43,686 nt of DNA from Verrucomicrobiales bacterium (GCA_031265365.1 JAISCS010000206.1:1-43686), one strand, 5' to 3'. Numbered from the stretch's first letter, positions 3,569 through 20,194 are shown. Notes: generated by a model not told the origin, from the letters alone. Numbers and translations are program-made.

Positions 3569-3602
3569 GTTCGCGCGGAGACGCTGAGACGCGGAGTTTT
3601 TT
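3569..3602 (+). repeat. GAGACGCGG-family (9-nt period) left arm
   Basis: GTTCGCGCGGAGACGCTGAGACGCGGAG followed by T-run; near-identical to 17927-17955. Confidence 0.85.
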
Positions 3603-3728
3603 GGTTCTATCCCATGAAAATTCCCCTGCCGTGAAGGGGTGGCGCGGAGCGACGGGGTAGTTCAGCGTTTTATGTGGCAGCATGCGGAACGCTGAACTAC
3701 CCCGTCCGCTGGCGCGGCCACCCCTTCA
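3603..3728 (-). mobile_element. Partial MITE copy 2, inverted orientation
   Basis: Starts GGTTCTATCCC (reverse complement of the right end) and then the palindromic core GGGGTAGTTCAGCGT...ACGCTGAACTACCCC; truncated at CCCCTTCA. Confidence 0.8.
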
Positions 3729-3739
3729 ATATATTTGTG

Positions 3740-4684: not shown

Positions 4685-6391
4685 TTAGGGCGAGAGTTTG
4701 ACTTGCAGTTGTTCTCTGGCGGATTCGATTTTCACTTTCAGCGGGGCCGGGTCTTTGAGTTGGGCCGAGGCTTTGGACCACGCGGCGATAGCTTTTTCGG
4801 TGTCGCCGAGTTTGTAGTAGATGTCGGCGAGGTGTTCCAAGATTTCCGGGTCGTCCGGCTCGCCGGCGATGGCTTTTTGCTGATATTCCAGCGCCTTGGG
4901 GTATTCTTTTTTCTGGTAACACACCCAGGCCATGCTGTCAAGATACGCGGGGCTGGCAGGGTCGAGCGCCAGCGCCCGGAGAATGAGTTGCTCCGCCTCG
5001 TCGAGGTTCTCGCCCCGGCTGGCCCAGTGATAACCAAGATAGTTCAGGGCTGGGTGATGGTTGGGATTCAGGTCGAGGCATTTTTTGAACAATCCGACGG
5101 CCTTGGTGAGGTTGCCGCTTCGGTCGCAGGTGACGGCGTAATCAAAATAAAAATTGATGTCAATCAGCTTGTCGTTTTGTTGTTCCAAGTCGGTGAAGAT
5201 GGCCAGCGCCTCGTCCCAGCGCTCCAGGTTTCGCAGGATGTGGGCTTGGGATAGCTTGAGGATGGTGACGGCGGGGAATTTTTTTTCGGCTTGTTGCAAG
5301 GTGGCCAGGGCCAAGGCGGGCTGGTGGTCGCGCGCCTGGGCGTCGGCGAGGCGGAAATAATCCCGCGCATCGGGATTGCCGAGTCGCACATAAAGCTGAT
5401 AGTAGGCGGCGGCTTGGGCCCATTGGTTTTGGTTGCCGTGTAGCTCGGCAATCATCGGGTAGAGGTTTTTGCGGTCGGGATAATCTTCCAGCAGGCTTTC
5501 GAGCACGGCGATGTTTTTGTCCGGTTGTTTCAGGACGTAGTAACAGATGGACATGCGTTCGCGGAGGCCGGGGAGGTCGGCGGTTTTGTGGTGCGCTTGC
5601 TCGTAGTAACTGATGGCGGCTTGGTAGTTTTCCAAGTCGAATTGCAGTTGGCCGAGGCGGAGGGCGAGTTGCGGGTGGGCGGGGTTCAGCACGCGGGCTT
5701 TTTCGTAGAAGGGCAGGACTTGCGCGGCGATTTCCTTGACCGTGAGCGGTTCGGTCCGGGCGAGCACCTGCGCCCACAGGTCGCCGAGCCGGGCGTAGTA
5801 GACGGCTTGGTCGGTGGTGACGGCCAGCGAGCGCGCCATGAGCGGGGGGATTTCCGCGCGCTGGCGTTGGTCCAGGTAATGACGGGCCAGCAGGTGATAG
5901 ACCGCGACCTGTCGTGGGTTTAATTTTTCGGCGGCGAGGGCGCTGGCCAATGCTTTATCGGGCTGGCCTTGGCGCTGATAAAGCCAGGCGAGCAGCGTTT
6001 TGATTTCGGCGGCGGCGGGGAAACTGGTTTCCTTTTCCCGTAGGAACGCGGTGGCGCGGGGCAGTTGGTCAAGTTTGCAGTGGATGATGGCGATGCGGAT
6101 ATGGGTGGGAAGGTAGCTTGGGTCAGCCGCGGCGGCGAGCCGGTACTTGGCCAGCGCGCTGGTGAATTGTCCCCGGCCCTCAAGCTGGACGGCCAGCGCG
6201 AAGTTGGTGGCGGCATTGGCGCGCCGGCCGAAGTCACTGTCAGCGGAATTGGCGGAGTTTGACGGGACGCGCCCCAAGTCCTGCTCGATGACCGTCAGCG
6301 GGTCGGGGACAAGCTCCTGCGCCACAGCGGCCGGCCAAGCGCCGACCACCATCCACAGGCACACCAAAAGCGGTGACAACCTTCGCTTCAC
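4685..6391 (-). CDS. Secreted/periplasmic tetratricopeptide repeat protein
   Basis: Signal peptide; many TPR-like helices; C-terminal ALNYLGY...YLDSMAW...EILEHLAD pattern. Confidence 0.88.
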   Translation of the reverse strand: MKRRLSPLLVCLWMVVGAWPAAVAQELVPDPLTVIEQDLGRVPSNSANSADSDFGRRANAATNFALAVQLEGRGQFTSALAKYRLAAAADPSYLPTHIRIAIIHCKLDQLPRATAFLREKETSFPAAAEIKTLLAWLYQRQGQPDKALASALAAEKLNPRQVAVYHLLARHYLDQRQRAEIPPLMARSLAVTTDQAVYYARLGDLWAQVLARTEPLTVKEIAAQVLPFYEKARVLNPAHPQLALRLGQLQFDLENYQAAISYYEQAHHKTADLPGLRERMSICYYVLKQPDKNIAVLESLLEDYPDRKNLYPMIAELHGNQNQWAQAAAYYQLYVRLGNPDARDYFRLADAQARDHQPALALATLQQAEKKFPAVTILKLSQAHILRNLERWDEALAIFTDLEQQNDKLIDINFYFDYAVTCDRSGNLTKAVGLFKKCLDLNPNHHPALNYLGYHWASRGENLDEAEQLILRALALDPASPAYLDSMAWVCYQKKEYPKALEYQQKAIAGEPDDPEILEHLADIYYKLGDTEKAIAAWSKASAQLKDPAPLKVKIESAREQLQVKLSP

Positions 6392-7602: not shown

Positions 7603-7984
7603 TGATTTTCCTGGGCTGGTAAGTTCGCGTTTTGCGTTTGAATTCCAATTTGACTGCACCGAAGTTCAGCAACAAACCGATTTCAATCTTGGTGGCGGTG
7701 AGATAGTTGACCAATTGCGCCTCATTGGCCGGTGACAAGGTCTGGTTGGCTTTTAATTCTAGCAGCACACAGTCTTCGACCAGCAAATCCGCCGAGAAAT
7801 CGCCAGCCTTCACACCTTCATACCAAACGGCGACGGGATATTCACTCGCAACGCGCAAACCGGACCTCTGCAATTCATGCGCCAGCGCCTTTTGATAAAC
7901 CGATTCCAAAAAACCGGGACCGAGCGCGGAATGCACTTTCATTGCACAGCCAATTATTACTCCTGTCAGTTGTTCGTACTCCAT
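7544..7984 (-). CDS. GxxExxY protein (PD-(D/E)XK nuclease-like)
   Basis: VHSALGPGFLESVY signature, ADLLVE...ELKA, QLVNYL, GLLLNFG; start placed at MEYEQL (7984). Confidence 0.93.
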   Translation of the reverse strand: MEYEQLTGVIIGCAMKVHSALGPGFLESVYQKALAHELQRSGLRVASEYPVAVWYEGVKAGDFSADLLVEDCVLLELKANQTLSPANEAQLVNYLTATKIEIGLLLNFGAVKLEFKRKTRTYQPRKIRQGEQDSWDGPNKDWDNSF

Positions 7985-7986
7985 AG

Positions 7987-8079
7987 TTTTTTGACAGGAT
8001 GAACAAGATTTGCAGGATAACAAACGTTTCCAAAATCCTTTTCAAAATATCCTGTCCATCTTGTTCATCCTGTCAAAAA
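7987..8079. repeat. GACAGGAT-family hairpin upstream of the GxxExxY gene
   Basis: 7988-8019 pairs with 8048-8079 (29/32 complementary by hand count). Confidence 0.9.
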
Positions 8080-8820: not shown

Positions 8821-10365
8821 TCATGTGCCCGGAAGGTTGTAACCGGCGGTGACTTTGCCGTCCTCGATTTTTTGGACGCGGTAGTTATTGGCAATGTTGT
8901 AGGCTTTGAGAACTTCCTTGATGGTGCCGTAGAATTGGAGCCAGAGGCGGTTGCCGATGGCGCTGGGGATGGCGGTGTTGCCGATGGTGACATCGCACTT
9001 GTAGAAGGTGATGGCTTCGTTGTTGGCCTGAAAGTGGAGGTCGTACTGGAAGAGGAAGTTTTTGCCGAGGCAGGAGGTTTGTTGTTGGAAGCGGAGTTTG
9101 CTGGCAAAGGCTTGGAAGTGGACTTTTTCCAAGGCGACTCCGAGGCTGCCGCTGACGGTGTCTTGGCGGAATTGAACGAGGCGATTGATGGCGGTGTTAA
9201 TCTCGGCGTCGCTCAGTTCGACGAGCAGGTCGCTGTTGTTCACGTCGCGCATGGTGTCACCTTGGGAGATGTAGAGCATCTTCAGCAGCTTGCCGAGAGG
9301 ATGGTCGGCGACGGGGATGGACCTCGGCGCGTCAGCCGCGGCGGGGTCGGTGGCTTCCTCGGTTTTCGCCGGCGCGTCCACTGACGCTAACGCCTTCCCT
9401 GTCTCTTCCGTGATGACGCCCGGCGCGTTGAAAATGCGGACGGCGTAGAACGTGTAAAAGCCCATGAACAGCACGGAGACGATGAGCATGATAAATTCGA
9501 GGAATCCGCCGATGCGGCTTTGGAACACCGCGTAGTAGAAACTGAACAACGCCACCAGCGCGGTCAGCGCGAGGAACACGGCGACGATGACCATAGTGGT
9601 TTGCGAGGCAACCGTGTTGGAGACGATGACGGGCTTGAGCTGGTCCGCGAAGGTTTGCATCCGCTCGGCGCGGCGGGTCTCCTGCGCCTGGTGGATTTCC
9701 GCGCGCGTGCGCCATTCGCCATCCCAGCGCACCTTGCCGGCCTTGAGCAACGCTTGGCGCTCCATCCACGGCTTGAGATAATCGTCAATCGCCGAGGCAA
9801 GGTCAGCGTACCGGCCCTTGAGCTGCTCGCCCGCGCCGAGCTTCCCGTCCAATTCATCCGGCGTGTAATCCTTCGCCTCGTCGAACTCAGTGACGGTAAA
9901 TTCCTTCAACATCTTCTCCTTCTCTTTCTCCTTCTCCGCCTGCTGGGTTTTGCGCGCCTCCAAAATCGTGTGGTACTTGGTGCGGTCAACGACGAGGCTC
10001 TTCTTCAACTCAGGGTAGTTCTTTATCAAATTGTCGTACTGCGCGACGATGTTGGAGATGTTATCGTCGGGCAAGTCTTGGTCCTCCTCGACGTAGAACG
10101 GCAGCACGTCTATCAGCATGTTCAACTGGCGCGCGTTACGCTGGCCCTCCTCGTTGGTTATCCACAGCGCCGGGTCTTTCTTCTCCACTTCCTTCGCGCG
10201 GATGACTTGCAGCCGCCCGTCGCCCGTCTTGACAATCGCGTACACATTGGACTGCGGCTGCTCGGCGCCCTCGTCCTCATCCTGCGCGGGCAACCACGCC
10301 GCCACCAACGTCATCATCAAACCAACCAATAACCACCTGTTCATGAATATCACTCTGTTAAACAT
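8821..10365 (-). CDS. Hypothetical membrane protein
   Basis: 514-aa ORF with coding-like codon use; signal peptide, charged helical region, two TM segments; no family recognised; start uncertain. Confidence 0.75.
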   Translation of the reverse strand: MFNRVIFMNRWLLVGLMMTLVAAWLPAQDEDEGAEQPQSNVYAIVKTGDGRLQVIRAKEVEKKDPALWITNEEGQRNARQLNMLIDVLPFYVEEDQDLPDDNISNIVAQYDNLIKNYPELKKSLVVDRTKYHTILEARKTQQAEKEKEKEKMLKEFTVTEFDEAKDYTPDELDGKLGAGEQLKGRYADLASAIDDYLKPWMERQALLKAGKVRWDGEWRTRAEIHQAQETRRAERMQTFADQLKPVIVSNTVASQTTMVIVAVFLALTALVALFSFYYAVFQSRIGGFLEFIMLIVSVLFMGFYTFYAVRIFNAPGVITEETGKALASVDAPAKTEEATDPAAADAPRSIPVADHPLGKLLKMLYISQGDTMRDVNNSDLLVELSDAEINTAINRLVQFRQDTVSGSLGVALEKVHFQAFASKLRFQQQTSCLGKNFLFQYDLHFQANNEAITFYKCDVTIGNTAIPSAIGNRLWLQFYGTIKEVLKAYNIANNYRVQKIEDGKVTAGYNLPGT

Positions 10366-10471
10366 ACTAGTCGCCTAATCTACCGATTACACGTCATCGG
10401 TCAACATTAAGACGCGACTGGCGGCATTTTCTTTGAATATTTTTTCCGAATGTTGCTATATTTTCCCCTTC

Positions 10472-13400
10472 ATGGCCACCCACGATTTCATCAAACTCCG
10501 CGGCCTCCGCGAAAACAATCTCAAAGGTTTCGACCTCGACCTCCCGCTTAACCAATTCATCGTCGTCACCGGCCTCAGCGGCAGCGGCAAATCCTCGCTG
10601 GCGTTCGACACCATCTTCGCCGAGGGCCAGCGCCGTTACACCGAGACCTTCTCCCCCTACACGCGCCAGTTCCTCGAACGCATGAACAAACCCAAGGCCG
10701 ACAGCATCGAGGGCATCCCGCCCGCCATCGCCCTAAGCCAGGTCAACTCCGTCCGCACCTCCCGCAGCACCGTCGGCTCCATGACCGAAATCGCCGATTA
10801 CTTGAAACTGCTGTTCCCCACCCACGCCGAGCTTCGCAGCCCCGTCACCGGCCAAAAAATCCAGCCGTGGACCCCCGCGCAAATCGTCGCCGAACTCCTC
10901 GCCCGTCACGCTGACACTCAAGTCCTTGTCACCTTCGACCTCGCGTTCTCCGCCAGCATCTCCTGGCCCGCCATCGTCCAAACCCTCCAAGCCCAAGGCT
11001 TCACTCGCGTCCTTTGGAATGACCAACCCGCGCGCCTCGACGACCTGGCAAACGTTACCGCCAGCGCCCCGCTCACCATCAGCGTCATCGCCGACCGCCT
11101 CACCGTCAGCGCCGAAACCCAATCCCGCCTCGCCGAAGCCATCCAAACCGCCCTCCAACACGGCAAAGGTCTAGTCACCATACGACCTATAAGTCCTATA
11201 CGACCCATAAGACCTATAACCTACGCCGACCATTACCTAGACCCCGCCACCCACCACCTCTACACCGCCCCCACCCCCGCTCTCTTCTCCTTCAACAGCC
11301 CCATCGGCGCCTGCCCCGTCTGCAAAGGCTTTGGCCGCACCGTCACCATCGACTACGACCTCGCCCTCCCCGACCGCACCCTCACCATCAGCGGCGGCGT
11401 GGTCAAATGCTTCTCCGGCCAGACCATGCAAGAATGCCAGCGCGACCTCCTCAAAGCCTGCCGCAAACACCGCATCCCCGCCAACATCCCCTTCAACCAA
11501 CTCACCAAAGCCCAGCAAAAATTCGTCATCCACGGCGAAATCACCCCCGGCAAAACCCTCGAACAATCCTATGACGACGGCGAATGGTACGGCGTCAGCG
11601 GCTTCTTCAAATGGCTCGAGATGCGCACCTACAAAATGAATGTCCGCATCCTCATCGCCCGCTACCGCGCCTACCACCCCTGCCCCGCCTGCCACGGTGA
11701 CCGCTTCAAACCCGAAACCACCCTCTGGCAACTCCACGGTAAAACCATCACCACCATCAACGCCACTCCCCTCCGCGACCTCGCCCCGTGGTTCGCCAAC
11801 CTCACCGTCAGCGACGCCTCTGCCAAAATCCTCCTTCACCAAATCACCGCCCGCCTCGCCTACCTCAACCAAGTCGGCCTCGGCTACCTCACCCTTGGCC
11901 GCGCCAGCCGCACCCTCAGCGGCGGCGAACTCCAGCGCGTCAACCTCACCACCTGCCTCGGCACCAGCCTCGTCGGCACCCTCTTCGTCCTCGACGAACC
12001 CAGCATCGGCCTCCACCCCCGCGACACCGCCCAACTCACCAACATCCTAAAAACCCTCGCCCGCCAGGGCAACACCGTCCTCGTCGTCGAGCACGACGCC
12101 GCCATCATCCGCGCCGCCGACCACCTCATCGAACTAGGCCCCCGCGGCGGCGCCGACGGCGGCCACCTCATCCACAGCGGCCACCCGGACAAATTCCAAA
12201 CCTCAAATCTCAAACCCCAAATAAATTCCAACCACAAAATATCAAATTCCAAAACCATCTCGCTCACCGCTGACTATCTCTCAGGCCGCCGCGTCATTCC
12301 TCTCCCCGACAAACGCCGCTCCGTTGACGAACACACGCCGCGGCTTGCTTTCAGCGGCGCGTCCAAACACAACATTCACCACCTCGCCGGCCAAATCCCC
12401 CTCGGCAAATTCACCGCCATCACCGGCGTCAGCGGCAGCGGCAAAAGCACCCTCGTCCGCGATATAATCGCCCCCGCGGTGAAAACAATGCTCTCCACCA
12501 AACCACACCGCCGCCGCGACGCCGGGGCGGTTTGGAATTTGAAATCTGGAATCTGGAGCTTGGTTGGAATTTGCGATCTGGAATTTGGCATTTGCGAGGT
12601 TTTAGTCGTCGACCAAAGCCCCCTCACCCGCAGCGCCCGCAGCACCCCCGCCCTCTACCTCGGCGCCTACGACCACATCCGCCAACTCCTCGCCGGCACC
12701 GACAGCGCCCGCCGCCTCGGTCTCACCCCCGCCGACTTCTCCTTCAACACCGGTGCCGGCCGCTGCCCCCGCTGCGCCGGCGCCGGCCACGAAAAAATCG
12801 AAATGCAATTCCTCTCCGATGTTTTCATCACCTGCCCCGTCTGCGACGGCAAACGTTTCCAAGACCACGTCCTCACCGCCGACTACCGTGGCAAAAACAT
12901 CGCCGACCTCCTCTCCCTCACCGTCAGCGAAGCCATCGCCTTTTTTAACTCCAGCCACGCGAAGGCGCAAACACCAGGTGAACAACGCGCGTGCTTAAAA
13001 ACCGCCGCCGCGCTGCACCTGTTGGAACAAGTCGGCCTCGGCTACCTCACCCTCGGCCAACCCACCAGCCACCTCAGTGGCGGCGAAGCCCAGCGCTTAA
13101 AACTCGTCGCCGAACTAACCGCCGCCCCCCTCAAAAAACTCCGCGGCTCCGCCTCTCCGCGCGAACCAAAAGGAAAACTAATCATCCTCGACGAACCCAC
13201 CACCGGCCTTCACTACGAAGACCTCCGCGTCCTGCTCGGCGTCCTGCAAACCCTCGTTGACCGCGGCCACACCCTGCTAGTCATCGAACACAACATGGAA
13301 CTCGTCAAATGCGCCGACTGGGTCATCGACCTTGGCCCCGAAGCCGGCGACCAAGGCGGCCAAATCATCGCCGAAGGCACCCCCGAACAAATCGCCGTCC

Positions 13401-16291
13401 ACCCCGCCAGCCGCACTGCCCCCTACCTAGCACAAGCCCTTCGGGGAACCGATGCGGACTTCCGAGGAGCCTATGCGGACTTCCGAGGAACCGATGCAGA
13501 CTTCCGAGGAGCCTATGCGGACTTCCGAGAAGCCTATGCGGACTTCCGAGGAACCTACGCGGACTTCCGAGAAGCCTATGCAGACTTCCGAGGAACCTAC
13601 GCGGACCTCCGAGGAGCCTATGCAGACTTCCGAGAAACCTACGCGGACTTCCGAGGAACCTCCCCCGTCCCCTCCCCCCCCGCCATCCAAATCACCGGTG
13701 CCACCCACCACAACCTAAAAAACCTCACCGTCAGCATCCCCCGCCAACAAATGACCGTCATCACCGGCCTCAGCGGCAGCGGCAAAAGCACCCTCGCCTT
13801 CGACCTCCTCTTCGCCGAGGGCCAGCGCCGCTACCTCGACTGCCTCAACAGTTACGCCCGTCAATTCATCGAACAACTCGAAAAACCCCGCGTGGACGCC
13901 ATCACCGGCATCCCCCCCACCGTCGCCATCGAACAACGCGCCACCCGTGGCGGACACAAAAGCACCGTCGCCACCGTCACCGAAATCTACCACTTCCTCC
14001 GCCTCCTCTACGCCAAACTCGGCGCCCAGCACGACCCCGCCACCGGCACCCCCTGCATCCAACAAACCCCCGCGCAAATCACCACCCAAATCAAAAAACA
14101 ACTAACCACCGCCCGCGAACACCTCCTCCTCGCCCCCCTAATCCGCGCCCGCAAAGGCAACTACACCGAACTCGCCGCCTGGGCCGCCAAAAAAGGCTAC
14201 CCCTACCTCCGCGTCAACGGCACCATCACCCCCACCGCCGACTTCAAACCCCTCAACCGCTACCGCGAACACACCATCGACCTAATCATCGCCACCCTCA
14301 CCCCCCGCACCCCCAACCTCCCCGCCCTCATCACCCAAGCCTTAGACCACGGCAAAGGCACCCTTATCATCAGACCCATAGGAACTATCCACCCCACAGA
14401 AACCACTCACAGCACCCACCTCTATAGCCCCGCCACCGGTAAATCCTTCCCCCCGTTAGACCCCCGACTCTTCTCCTCCAACTCCCCCCACGGCTGGTGC
14501 CCTCGCTGCCAAGGCTACGGCACCCTCGCCAACCTCTCCGCCGACGCCACCCTCACCCCCCTCGAACAAGAACAACAACAAGAACTAGCCCGCGAACACC
14601 TCGACGACCTCGCCGCCACCCCCTGCCCGGCCTGCCACGGCACCCGCCTCAACGAAACCGCCCGTGCCGTCCGCTTCGCCGGCCGCCCCGTCACCGACCT
14701 CAACGCCATGACCGTCAGCGCCCTCGACCGCTTCCTCACCACCCTCAAACTCAAAGGCCGTGCCGCCGCCATCGCCCGCGACATCCTGCCCGAACTCCGC
14801 CAACGCCTCCAATTCCTCCGCCACGTCGGCCTCGACTACCTCAACCTCGACCGCCCCGCCCCCACCCTCAGCGGCGGCGAAGCCCAGCGCATCCGCCTCG
14901 CCGCCCAACTCGGCTCCAACCTCCAGGGCGTCCTCTACATCCTCGACGAACCCACCATCGGCCTCCACCCCCGCGACAACGCCGAACTCATCAAAACCCT
15001 CCGCCACCTCCAACAACGCGGCAACACCCTCGTCATCGTCGAGCACGACGAAGCCACCATGCGCGCCGCCGACCACATTATCGACCTCGGCCCCGGCGCC
15101 GGCGTCAACGGCGGCCAACTCATCGCCCAAGGCACCTGGCGCGCCATCACCCGCAACCGCCGGTCCCTCACCGGCAAACTCCTCGGCGCCCCGTTACCAC
15201 ACCCCATGCGCGGCACCCGCCGCAAAACCGACCGGCACACCCAATGGCTCACCATCCCCAACGCCACCGCCAACAACATAAAAAACCTCACCATCAAACT
15301 CCCCCTGGGTAAACTCATCGGCATCAGCGGCGTCAGCGGCAGCGGCAAAAGCACCCTAATGCACAAAATCATCATCCCCGCCGTGCGGAAAAAAATTGAA
15401 ACCAGAAAACAGAAAGCAAAAATTTCAGCTTCCAACTTTCAGCTTTCCAATTTAGTTCAAGTCACCCAAACCCCCATCGGCAAAACCAGCCGCAGCACCG
15501 TCAGCACCTACCTTGGACTCATGGACCGCCTCCGGCAACTCATGGCCCAGCTCCCCCTCGCCAAAACCCGCGGCTACACCCCCGCCCACTTCTCCTACAA
15601 CGCCGGCCCCGGCCGCTGCCCCGCCTGCCAGGGCCAGGGCTTTCTAAAAATTGACATGAACTTCCTCCCCACCGCCTACATCCCCTGCGACCAATGCAAC
15701 GGCCAGCGCTGGACCGCCCCCATCCTCGAAATCACCTACCACGACAAAAACATCTACCAAATCCTCACCCTCAGCGTCGACGAAGCCGTCGAATTTTTTG
15801 CCGGCCAGCCCACCGTCCAAGTCCCGCTGAAACTCCTGCAAGAAACCGGCCTCGGCTACCTCACCCTCGGCCAAACCAGCCCCACCCTCAGCGGCGGCGA
15901 AGCCCAGCGCCTTAAACTCGTCACCGAACTCGCCAGCCTCCGCCTCCAAGAACACCGCCAGCGCCCCGCCACCCGCGCCGCCGGCGCCGGGCGAACCCTC
16001 TATCTGCTGGAAGAACCCACCGTCGGCCTCCACCTCGCCGACGTCCAAAGATTGCTTGAAGTCCTGCACCAACTCGTTGACGCCGGCCACACCGTCATCG
16101 TCATCGAACACCACCTGGACCTGCTCGCCGAATGCGACCACCTCATCGACCTCGGCCCCGAAAGCGGCGCCAAAGGGGGCCGCGTCATCGCCGCCGGCCC
16201 CCCCGAACAAATCGCCGGCAACCAACGCAGCCACACCGGCCGCTACCTCCGCCCCCTGCTATATCTCCCAAAAATCGACGCGGCCAAATAG
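10472..16291 (+). CDS. uvrA: Excinuclease ABC subunit A, double-length (two fused UvrA units) with several in-frame repeat insertions
   Basis: Four Walker A motifs (GLSGSGKS x2, GVSGSGKS x2), four LSGGE signatures, CxxC zinc fingers; start placed at MATHDF (10472). Confidence 0.95.
13439..13661 (+). repeat. 21-bp tandem repeat (10 full units plus a partial) in the uvrA inter-unit linker
   Basis: Consensus TTCCGAG(G/A)A(A/G)CC(T/G)A(T/C)GC(G/A)GAC, encoding FR(G/E)(T/A)(Y/D)AD heptads. Confidence 0.97.
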
Positions 16292-20113: not shown

Positions 20114-20194
20114 GGGCACGTGGCGAAATGGCAGACGCGCTGGATTTAGGTTCCAGTGGAGCAATCCATGTAGGTTCGAGTCCTATCGTGCCCA
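20114..20194 (+). tRNA. tRNA-Leu (anticodon TAG)
   Basis: Acceptor GGGCACG/CGTGCCC plus discriminator A; D-arm TGGCGAAATGGCAGACGC; anticodon stem CTGGA-TTTAGGT-TCCAG; long variable arm; GGTTCGAGTCC; CCA not encoded. Confidence 0.96.

Follow-up and report, generated by a model that had tools for sequence, protein, structure and literature searches.

Short dispersed repeats in the reading frame of a fused double uvrA gene from a Verrucomicrobiales bacterium

Introduction

How does a conserved DNA-repair gene come to carry, in its own reading frame, stretches that resemble the repeats found in the intergenic space of the same genome? The question is raised by a 43,686-nucleotide (nt) stretch of DNA from a Verrucomicrobiales bacterium (GCA_031265365.1 JAISCS010000206.1:1-43686), called the window below, which includes a gene for a fused double UvrA protein. 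An original prediction, made from the sequence of the window, held that this gene is occupied in frame by at least six intergenic-type repeat arms lying in matching loops of both halves. These segments are called A to F here, in their order along the gene (Table 1).

We have followed up this prediction in the genome to which the window belongs (G000), a metagenome-assembled genome of 2.76 Mb in 213 contigs, and in three congeners (G001, G002 and G003); C-numbers denote contigs. We conclude that the double uvrA gene has probably been colonised passively by short dispersed repeats, with selection acting as the filter. Outside Rickettsia, the locus is a clear case in which intergenic repeats of several families have turned into protein sequence, in a lineage known from metagenome-assembled genomes only.

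Results

We used blastn-short to compare each segment with the remainder of the genome, and 100 dinucleotide-preserving shuffles served as the control. Segment D has 92 other matches of at least 32 bits where 0.37 are expected, and no shuffle reaches this count. The same is true of the 3' arm of segment F (25 matches of at least 32 bits versus 0.15 expected), of its 5' arm (nine of at least 28 bits versus 0.5) and of segment B (43 of at least 28 bits versus 4.4), all with 0 of 100 shuffles. The matches fall mostly between genes: 80 of 93 for the D family, 26 of 31 for the F 3' arm and 31 of 44 for B. Segments D, F and B genuinely belong to repeat families that are dispersed and lie mostly between genes.

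The signal of segment C is weak, with nine matches of at least 28 bits versus 1.9 expected and one shuffle in 100 reaching the count. Across 277 nt of conserved coding sequence that separate the two arms, B and C are 70% complementary over 64 nt, and Tandem Repeats Finder (TRF) reports the same array in both (period 7, 3.6 copies, 83% matches), as against periods of 8 and 9 for D and A. B and C represent a single family, present here twice in opposite orientations. For segment A, an array of 9-mers between genes at C14:20518-20540, a short way upstream of a start codon, matches exactly at 23/23 nt, and in a degenerate three-unit scan its family comprises only three G000 loci, where ten shuffled-unit controls gave 0-1 raw matches. 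The third of these loci, within MetH, has a different reading frame and could be due to chance. Segment A is also the strongest codon-usage dip of the gene (-15.7 versus a window mean of +4.3). Segment E gave no match of 24 bits or more elsewhere in the G000 genome and is therefore not a demonstrable repeat arm; one of its 9-mers agrees with the A unit at eight of nine positions.

The tally is four solid segments, one partial (A) and one unsupported (E). Of the six or more arms originally predicted, B, D and F are borne out as repeats and C as an inverse copy of B, whereas A reduces to a three-locus family and E is unmatched. The search of the genome that the prediction proposed as a check gave a corresponding result, in that D, F and B stand above the shuffles, A has one exact counterpart, C is weak and E has none. 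A separate screen for 12-mers present at least eight times marked about one-third of the genome and was dropped, as coding 12-mers recur in DNA of biased composition.

Comparison with the intergenic copies reveals how the arms are built. D-type arms consist of AAAAAA, then about three CTCCGCGN octamers, then the end CGAAC; they start GTTCGCGC and finish GCGCGAAC. Between genes these arms often form inverted pairs around an A/T-rich loop and often also occur singly, and they fold only as inverted pairs; the single arm in uvrA folds at -7.9 kcal/mol (z-score -1.67). The prediction had matched it to the reverse complement of an intergenic arm of the window, and the alignment was reproduced exactly (Table 1). 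For segment F a heptamer hairpin had been claimed. The whole 62 nt, both arms included, does align to complete intergenic heptamer hairpins at C74 and C13, but in the uvrA copy the pairing has decayed, and as a hairpin it lacks significance (-6.4 kcal/mol, z -0.58). The 64-nt length of B and C is about the span of an AAATTCC run at C157, and intergenic members of the B/C family sit directly upstream of start codons. On contig C45, three genes in a row each have a GGAATTT array with a GGAG end immediately upstream of the start codon (arrays at 5600-5660, 7940-7998 and 10150-10220), and these may be leader or ribosome-binding-site-associated repeats.

Two further repeats of this genome were seen alongside. 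A large palindromic element, at 3620-3729 of the window and genome-wide, contains GGGGTAGTTCAGCGTT and its complement. We counted its 16-mers about 490-570 times across the genome, equivalent to a few hundred elements on the assumption that both arms of each are counted. Its loop sometimes encloses F-type heptamer hairpins, and D-type arms adjoin it; the hairpins at C74 and C13 sit inside a larger palindrome. Tandem arrays of the octamer AATTGCCG are also found genome-wide, with 16-mers such as ATTGCCGAATTGCCGA present about 175-180 times.

The gene that hosts the arms is intact, as the prediction had stated. A long open reading frame (ORF) runs without stops from 10433 to 16291 on the plus strand; it opens at a TTG (10433), and the ATG at 10472 is likely the start of the double uvrA gene. 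Its translation contains two complete UvrA units in one frame with a repetitive linker in between, and four sets of Walker A, signature (LSGGE/Q) and Walker B motifs can be read in it, i.e. two ABC ATPase modules per UvrA unit. Half 1 matches the Geobacillus UvrA structure 2R6F over amino acids (aa) 5-993 (phmmer, E = 1e-205), and Pfam matches to ABC_tran are present in both halves. Halves 1 and 2 both contain the UvrB-interaction domain PF17760 (UvrA_inter), with scores of 60.2 and 65.0 bits respectively (cut-off 23.3). The UvrA DNA-binding (insertion) domain PF17755 scores 36.3 bits in half 1, covering only profile positions 1-73 of 110, and is unlisted for half 2 at E<=1e-5.

The fused double UvrA is not peculiar to G000, given that open frames of 1839-2134 aa spanning both halves occur in no fewer than 29 of 40 listed relatives; a separate canonical UvrA is encoded in G000 on contig C84. 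For constraint and for insertions we used a protein alignment of G000 with 18 full-length relatives and two G003 fragments, and codons were read in the congeners. Across the 18 other full-length sequences 451 columns are invariant, and the G000 protein retains 446 of them, within the range of its relatives, most of which deviate at 0-7. By this measure the double uvrA gene as a whole is under normal constraint. One change adjoins segment F, where an aspartate invariant in the other 18 sequences is replaced (D1665T).

Are the segments insertions, or are they loops inherited from an ancestor? The net gains listed in Table 1 for B, C, E and the linker between the halves are relative to 16 sequences from other genera. 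B and C are missing from all other genera, and congeners bear different repeats at the matching sites; on the alignment, then, the segments are not conserved ancestral loops, the outcome that the prediction had named as fatal to it. Its proposal that the arms are lineage-specific insertions holds for B, which is confined to the genus, and for C, which is found in G000 only, but not for A, D and F, which occupy loops of variable length in all relatives. D and F appear to replace loop sequence rather than to lengthen the loop, and the net length gain of A is close to zero. Compared with arm lengths of 64 nt (B), 64 nt (C), about 33 nt (D) and about 62 nt (F), the net gains are +48, +33, about 0 and less than 0 nt, so native codons would have been lost together with, or after, each gain. 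A four-residue extra run (PKID) is present at the C-terminus of the G000 protein.

We modelled aa 5-992 with AlphaFold from an alignment of 20 sequences; the model has a mean predicted local distance difference test score (pLDDT) of 82.3 and a predicted template modelling score of 0.73. Six of its segments fall below a pLDDT of 50, and three of these, all coil, overlap repeat arms (aa 581-594, B; aa 694-704, C; aa 885-898, D). Segment A is modelled as a beta-hairpin of two strands and a turn at pLDDT 86-89. Relative to 2R6F, the G000 protein is longer by four residues at A, 16 at B, about 14 around C and eight at D. The idea that the arms sit in permissive loops is supported by the model for B, C and D, but not for A, a confident beta-hairpin. 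Two pairs of segments had been assigned to paralogous positions, and the positions are as described: C and F follow the Walker A motif of nucleotide-binding domain II (NBD-II) in each half, and A and E follow HGKG. Of the latter pair only A is a repeat. New peptide is created in the sense that several families are translated in frame within a well-conserved UvrA, with the reservation that D and F replace loop sequence.

The phenomenon is genus-wide, as congeners carry other families at the same uvrA loops. Scans of metagenomes and genomes found no protein relative closer than the three congeners (best matches 49% in metagenomes, 64-69% in genomes). Insertions at site B are confined to the genus, and G000, G001 and G002 each carry a different sequence there, i.e. 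three unrelated elements. In G001, sites B and E hold stable AGATGG-heptamer hairpins (-41.4 and -26.4 kcal/mol; z -7.3 and -3.9). In G002, site B holds a 95-nt ATTGATT-type hairpin (z -12.2), with a second in-frame copy about 465 nt upstream in the gene; the two copies (G002:C147, about aa 464-488 and 622-645 of the double UvrA) are 86% identical, and the element has 55 matches in the G002 genome. Site E also bears an insert in G002, though not in the G003 fragment.

The D loop is occupied in more than one species. G001 has a D-type arm at this loop and another at the F loop, so that the peptide LRASAVN is encoded twice. The G000 copy ends in ...GCGCGAAC, a type with 110 copies in G000 and none in G001, whereas the G001 copy ends in ...GCGGTTAAC, counted 14 times in G001, 90 times in G002, 86 times in G003 and once in G000. 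The two D-loop copies are in different reading frames and start three codons apart, which favours independent events while leaving room for conversion.

Nor is uvrA the only gene affected. We searched the interiors of 1646 coding sequences (CDSs) by BLAST against the intergenic set of the same genome, with reversed sequences as the control. At least three intergenic regions are matched by 136 CDS segments, as compared with one for the control, and 42 of the 136 are deep-internal with coding signal on both flanks, distributed over 38 CDSs. The expectation that other genes would carry the same kind of arms was therefore confirmed. The double uvrA gene and a phage portal/Mu-F gene have three deep segments each. 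The inserts lie mostly between Pfam domains, and such domains flank the insert on both sides in MutL, ThiC, Tgt, NuoCD, ABC-F, peptidase U32, a Type ISP restriction enzyme, terminase, portal and the canonical UvrA. Peptides encoded recurrently by the repeats include NSKLQ/KFQISNSK, VAQAILPV and NNQLSIINN.

Two of these genes are of particular use. The canonical UvrA carries the insert PNNQLSIINNPS between its UvrB-interaction and DNA-binding domains, a place that we read as the hairpin equivalent to sites A and E. In Tgt, an orthologous AAATTCC-type insert is common to G000, G002 and G003, in place of a loop retained by G001, G005 and G006; it is longer in G002 and G003, where a second arm of the AATAATCAAT type follows. 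Because this insert is common to three congeners, such inserts can persist through speciation.

The linker between the two halves is a different matter. Its in-frame 21-nt unit has no dispersed counterparts elsewhere in the G000 genome, and the array is surely of local origin, through slippage.

The double uvrA gene is also unusual in composition. Its coding-strand GC skew (-0.385) is the sixth most negative of 1402 genes (genome mean 0.006, standard deviation 0.143), and at third codon positions its G/C skew reaches -0.82, the genome mean being -0.08. A C-skew is likewise present in 17 of 19 orthologues examined, where it is weaker (-0.13 to -0.70). A check of the most C-skewed genes for high expression as a cause offered no explanation: five of the eight genes scanned have no Pfam family and the others encode a glycosyltransferase, an amylase-family enzyme and MetH (included for its 9-mer copy, not for its skew). 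Elsewhere in the window, a tRNA gene at 20114-20194 is the sole Rfam match at the gathering threshold.

Table 1. Features of the double uvrA gene and related repeats; positions are those of the window unless a contig is given
Feature	Position	Strand	Remarks
Intergenic D-type arm	3569..3602	-	Beside large palindromic element; counterpart of D, 31/34 (91.2% over 34)
Fused double UvrA CDS	10472..16291	+	1939 aa plus stop
Segment A	11180..11219	+	9-nt tandem array, 4.4 copies (TRF); end of UvrB-interaction domain, half 1
Segment B	12190..12254	+	64-nt AAATTCC-type arm, A/C-rich orientation; net +16 aa
Segment C	12531..12594	+	64-nt GGAATTT-type arm, inverse orientation of B family; net +11 aa; G000 only
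Segment D	13133..13167	+	Solo octamer arm, AAAAAA + CTCCGCGN x3 + CGAAC; between signature motif and Walker B, NBD-II, half 1
Inter-half linker	13445..13661	+	In-frame 21-nt minisatellite, 10.3 copies, YADFRG[T/A] (TRF); G000 only; +44 aa
Segment E	14372..14389	+	IRPIGTI; claimed arm, unsupported as repeat; net +3 aa; atypical codons
Segment F	15392..15453	+	Both arms of GAAAGCN/TTTCAGC heptamer hairpin element; after NBD-II Walker A, half 2
In-frame repeat, MutL	C123:3272-3395
In-frame repeat, ThiC	C56:9601-9682
In-frame repeat, Tgt	C81:8983-9023
In-frame repeat, NuoCD	C22:3943-3988
In-frame repeat, canonical UvrA	C84:1016-1050

Discussion

We consider it probable that the double uvrA gene has been colonised passively, with selection deciding what remains. 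The source would be the short repeats that fill the intergenic space of G000, built as arms of three to eight imperfect tandem 7-, 8- or 9-nt units and often arranged as inverted, hairpin-forming pairs. Copies would land in, or be copied into, coding DNA, and those that keep the frame at structurally tolerant places (the tip of a hairpin, hypervariable loops and the loop that separates Walker B from the signature motif) would persist and be translated as extra or replaced loop peptide. What we observe directly is membership of dispersed families, an intact frame with intact motifs, positions in variable or low-confidence loops, and recurrence in other genes and congeners. The repeats would have to be mobile and some enzyme would presumably move them, and we infer that the inserts are selectively near-neutral passengers.

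Several points weigh against this explanation. The arms replace native sequence, which is not what plain transposition predicts, and the reuse of the same loops across species by different families could reflect targeting rather than filtering. No target-site duplication could be read in the codon alignments, in which the loops are too divergent to fix the borders of the arms. No mobilising enzyme could be tied to the arms: seven G000 loci (on C14, C148, C208, C83, C33, C193 and C3, with frames of 253-344 aa) have weak Y1_Tnp (IS200/RAYT-like) matches, the two Y1-type proteins scanned reach 62-72 bits against the REP-associated tyrosine transposase model NF047646 (cut-off 80), and no arms flank the one Y1 locus read. 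The enrichment in uvrA is nominal, with three segments versus 0.11 expected (P = 2e-4) becoming 0.35 after multiplication by 1646 genes. Finally, the genome is 77.6% complete and its gene map comes from our own crude caller (2208 genes, 83% coding).

Some of these points are what an active process would produce, whether preferential insertion guided by DNA or structural context in uvrA or gene conversion by which a dominant subfamily overwrites an older insert, and we grant this alternative a real though minor chance. In its favour, the D-loop copy of each species carries the end variant of its own genome (GCGCGAAC in G000, GCGGTTAAC in G001), three unrelated elements have arrived at site B, the hairpin after GKG has been struck in half 2 of G001, in half 2 of G002 and in the canonical UvrA of G000, and native codons are replaced by arms rather than added to. 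The different frames and starts of the D-loop copies, on the other hand, fit independent events, a strong selective filter by itself predicts that a few permissive loops will be reused, the Tgt insert, held in common by several species with little change, argues against rapid overwriting, and we identified no enzyme or target motif. A bolder version is that the arms are previously undescribed, very small elements that overwrite loop-coding DNA by templated, conversion-like copying, revisiting the same loops and remaining matched to the subfamily of their own genome. We think this rather improbable; if true, it would mean an ongoing repeat-driven rewriting of protein loops in the genus, whose targets would include uvrA, MutL and further repair genes.

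Three further explanations fare less well. Local replication slippage could have made the tandem units in place, such that the segments are home-grown microsatellites, much as the linker array lacks counterparts elsewhere, A is a 9-nt array with a family of only three loci, and E is a single unit resembling that of A. This origin possibly explains A and E, although A has its exact 23-mer in common with an intergenic site. For D, F and B it is refuted by tens of dispersed relatives far above the shuffle controls, and both arms of F align to intergenic hairpins; as a general account we regard slippage as quite unlikely. It is very unlikely that the inserts are functional, with B and C acting as a long-range mRNA stem or as an intragenic invertible off switch, or with the peptides modulating UvrA. 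When 12180-12605 is folded at minimum energy (z -4.68), B does pair with C, and inversion of the B-C segment in silico brings in two stops, so that it would act as an off switch; intragenic invertons, reportedly described in a preprint (10.1101/2023.03.11.532203), provide a precedent. Yet the arms are only 70% complementary, copies of one family in opposite orientation are complementary by construction, the inserts of congeners differ at the same sites, which speaks against a conserved function, and the same families decorate unrelated genes.

We can hardly credit an assembly artefact in which repeats were wrongly stitched into the contig, even for an assembly of 213 contigs that is 77.6% complete. 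No segment interrupts the open frame, and independently assembled congeners have analogous in-frame inserts. Contigs of run X1, which may derive from the source sample, show 0 differences across A, B+C+D (all on a single contig of 1413 nt), E and F, although they break within the linker minisatellite. The loose ends of other contigs in this comparison stop at 13132/13133 and 13164; joints that link conserved UvrA motifs at low likeness are taken to come from other organisms. Neither a form without an insert nor a strand switch of B-C was seen among the run contigs, which is uninformative either way since contigs drop rare variants.

The case has uses beyond this gene. The reuse of loops among congeners maps the positions in UvrA and Tgt that tolerate 10-30 foreign residues, and the species-specific end variants of the D loop provide a handle on insertion versus conversion as the mode of spread. 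For annotation, low-GC stretches with odd codons in the conserved genes of this group should not be taken as frameshifts or assembly errors.

Comparison with known systems

In-frame palindromic repeats in uvrA have been known since 2013 from Di Nocera et al. 2013 (PMC3733652), and the G000 case is a variant of that phenomenon. According to this source, repetitive extragenic palindromic sequences (REPs) occur inside coding regions, with repair genes prominent; both uvrA genes of the verrucomicrobium Opitutus terrae bear two REP inserts each, and REP inserts are also present in Thioalkalivibrio uvrA and R. conorii uvrB. Our literature search found no further paper on repeats inside uvrA beyond PMC3733652. 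The G000 elements resemble the O. terrae REPs in being short, high in copy number and mostly intergenic, and in lying in frame within a verrucomicrobial uvrA gene, at least two per gene, where they encode about 20-30 aa; repair genes are again prominent among the decorated genes. High copy number and a mostly intergenic distribution are features of REP superfamilies in general.

The differences are as clear. REPs are self-folding palindromes of 20-40 bp, whereas the D and F copies in uvrA do not fold on their own, and solo arms here are not palindromic by themselves. The G000 arms are built of tandem 7-9-nt units and lack the GTAG/CGTC end tag, which was found neither on D arms nor on the B/C, F or A units. 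At least four families share one gene, and the host is a fused double UvrA. Another, larger palindrome of G000 does contain GGGGTAGTTCAGCG.

Cyanobacterial short tandemly repeated repetitive (STRR) sequences are tandem heptamer arrays that are dispersed intergenically and sometimes form hairpins. The head-to-tail 7-nt units of B and C are similar in all these respects, but they belong to another phylum and have other unit sequences, and we know of no STRR case in which one gene is colonised in frame by several families. Unlike MITEs, the miniature transposable elements with inverted repeats, the arms have no demonstrable terminal inverted repeats with target duplication, and at 32-64 nt they are below the usual MITE size. 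Bacterial MITEs have reportedly been found within genes (PMC2229807, PMC10969869).

The analogy with Rickettsia drawn in the original prediction is apt, and the REP-interrupted uvrA of O. terrae (PMC3733652) is a closer precedent. The G000 elements share with Rickettsia palindromic elements (RPEs) the in-frame insertion, the translated extra peptide at tolerated positions and the existence of several families, a functional likeness that does not by itself establish membership; they differ in often being single arms and in often replacing loop codons. RPEs are longer palindromic units, and the Rickettsia lineage is unrelated to G000. They are reportedly due to Ogata et al. in 2000, who are said to have described several families in frame within functional genes. 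RPEs are mentioned in the Background of PMC3733652. Because they lack the GTAG/CGTC tag and their uvrA copies do not fold on their own, we file the G000 elements outside the REP and RPE families, as elements that work like REP and RPE decoration of genes.

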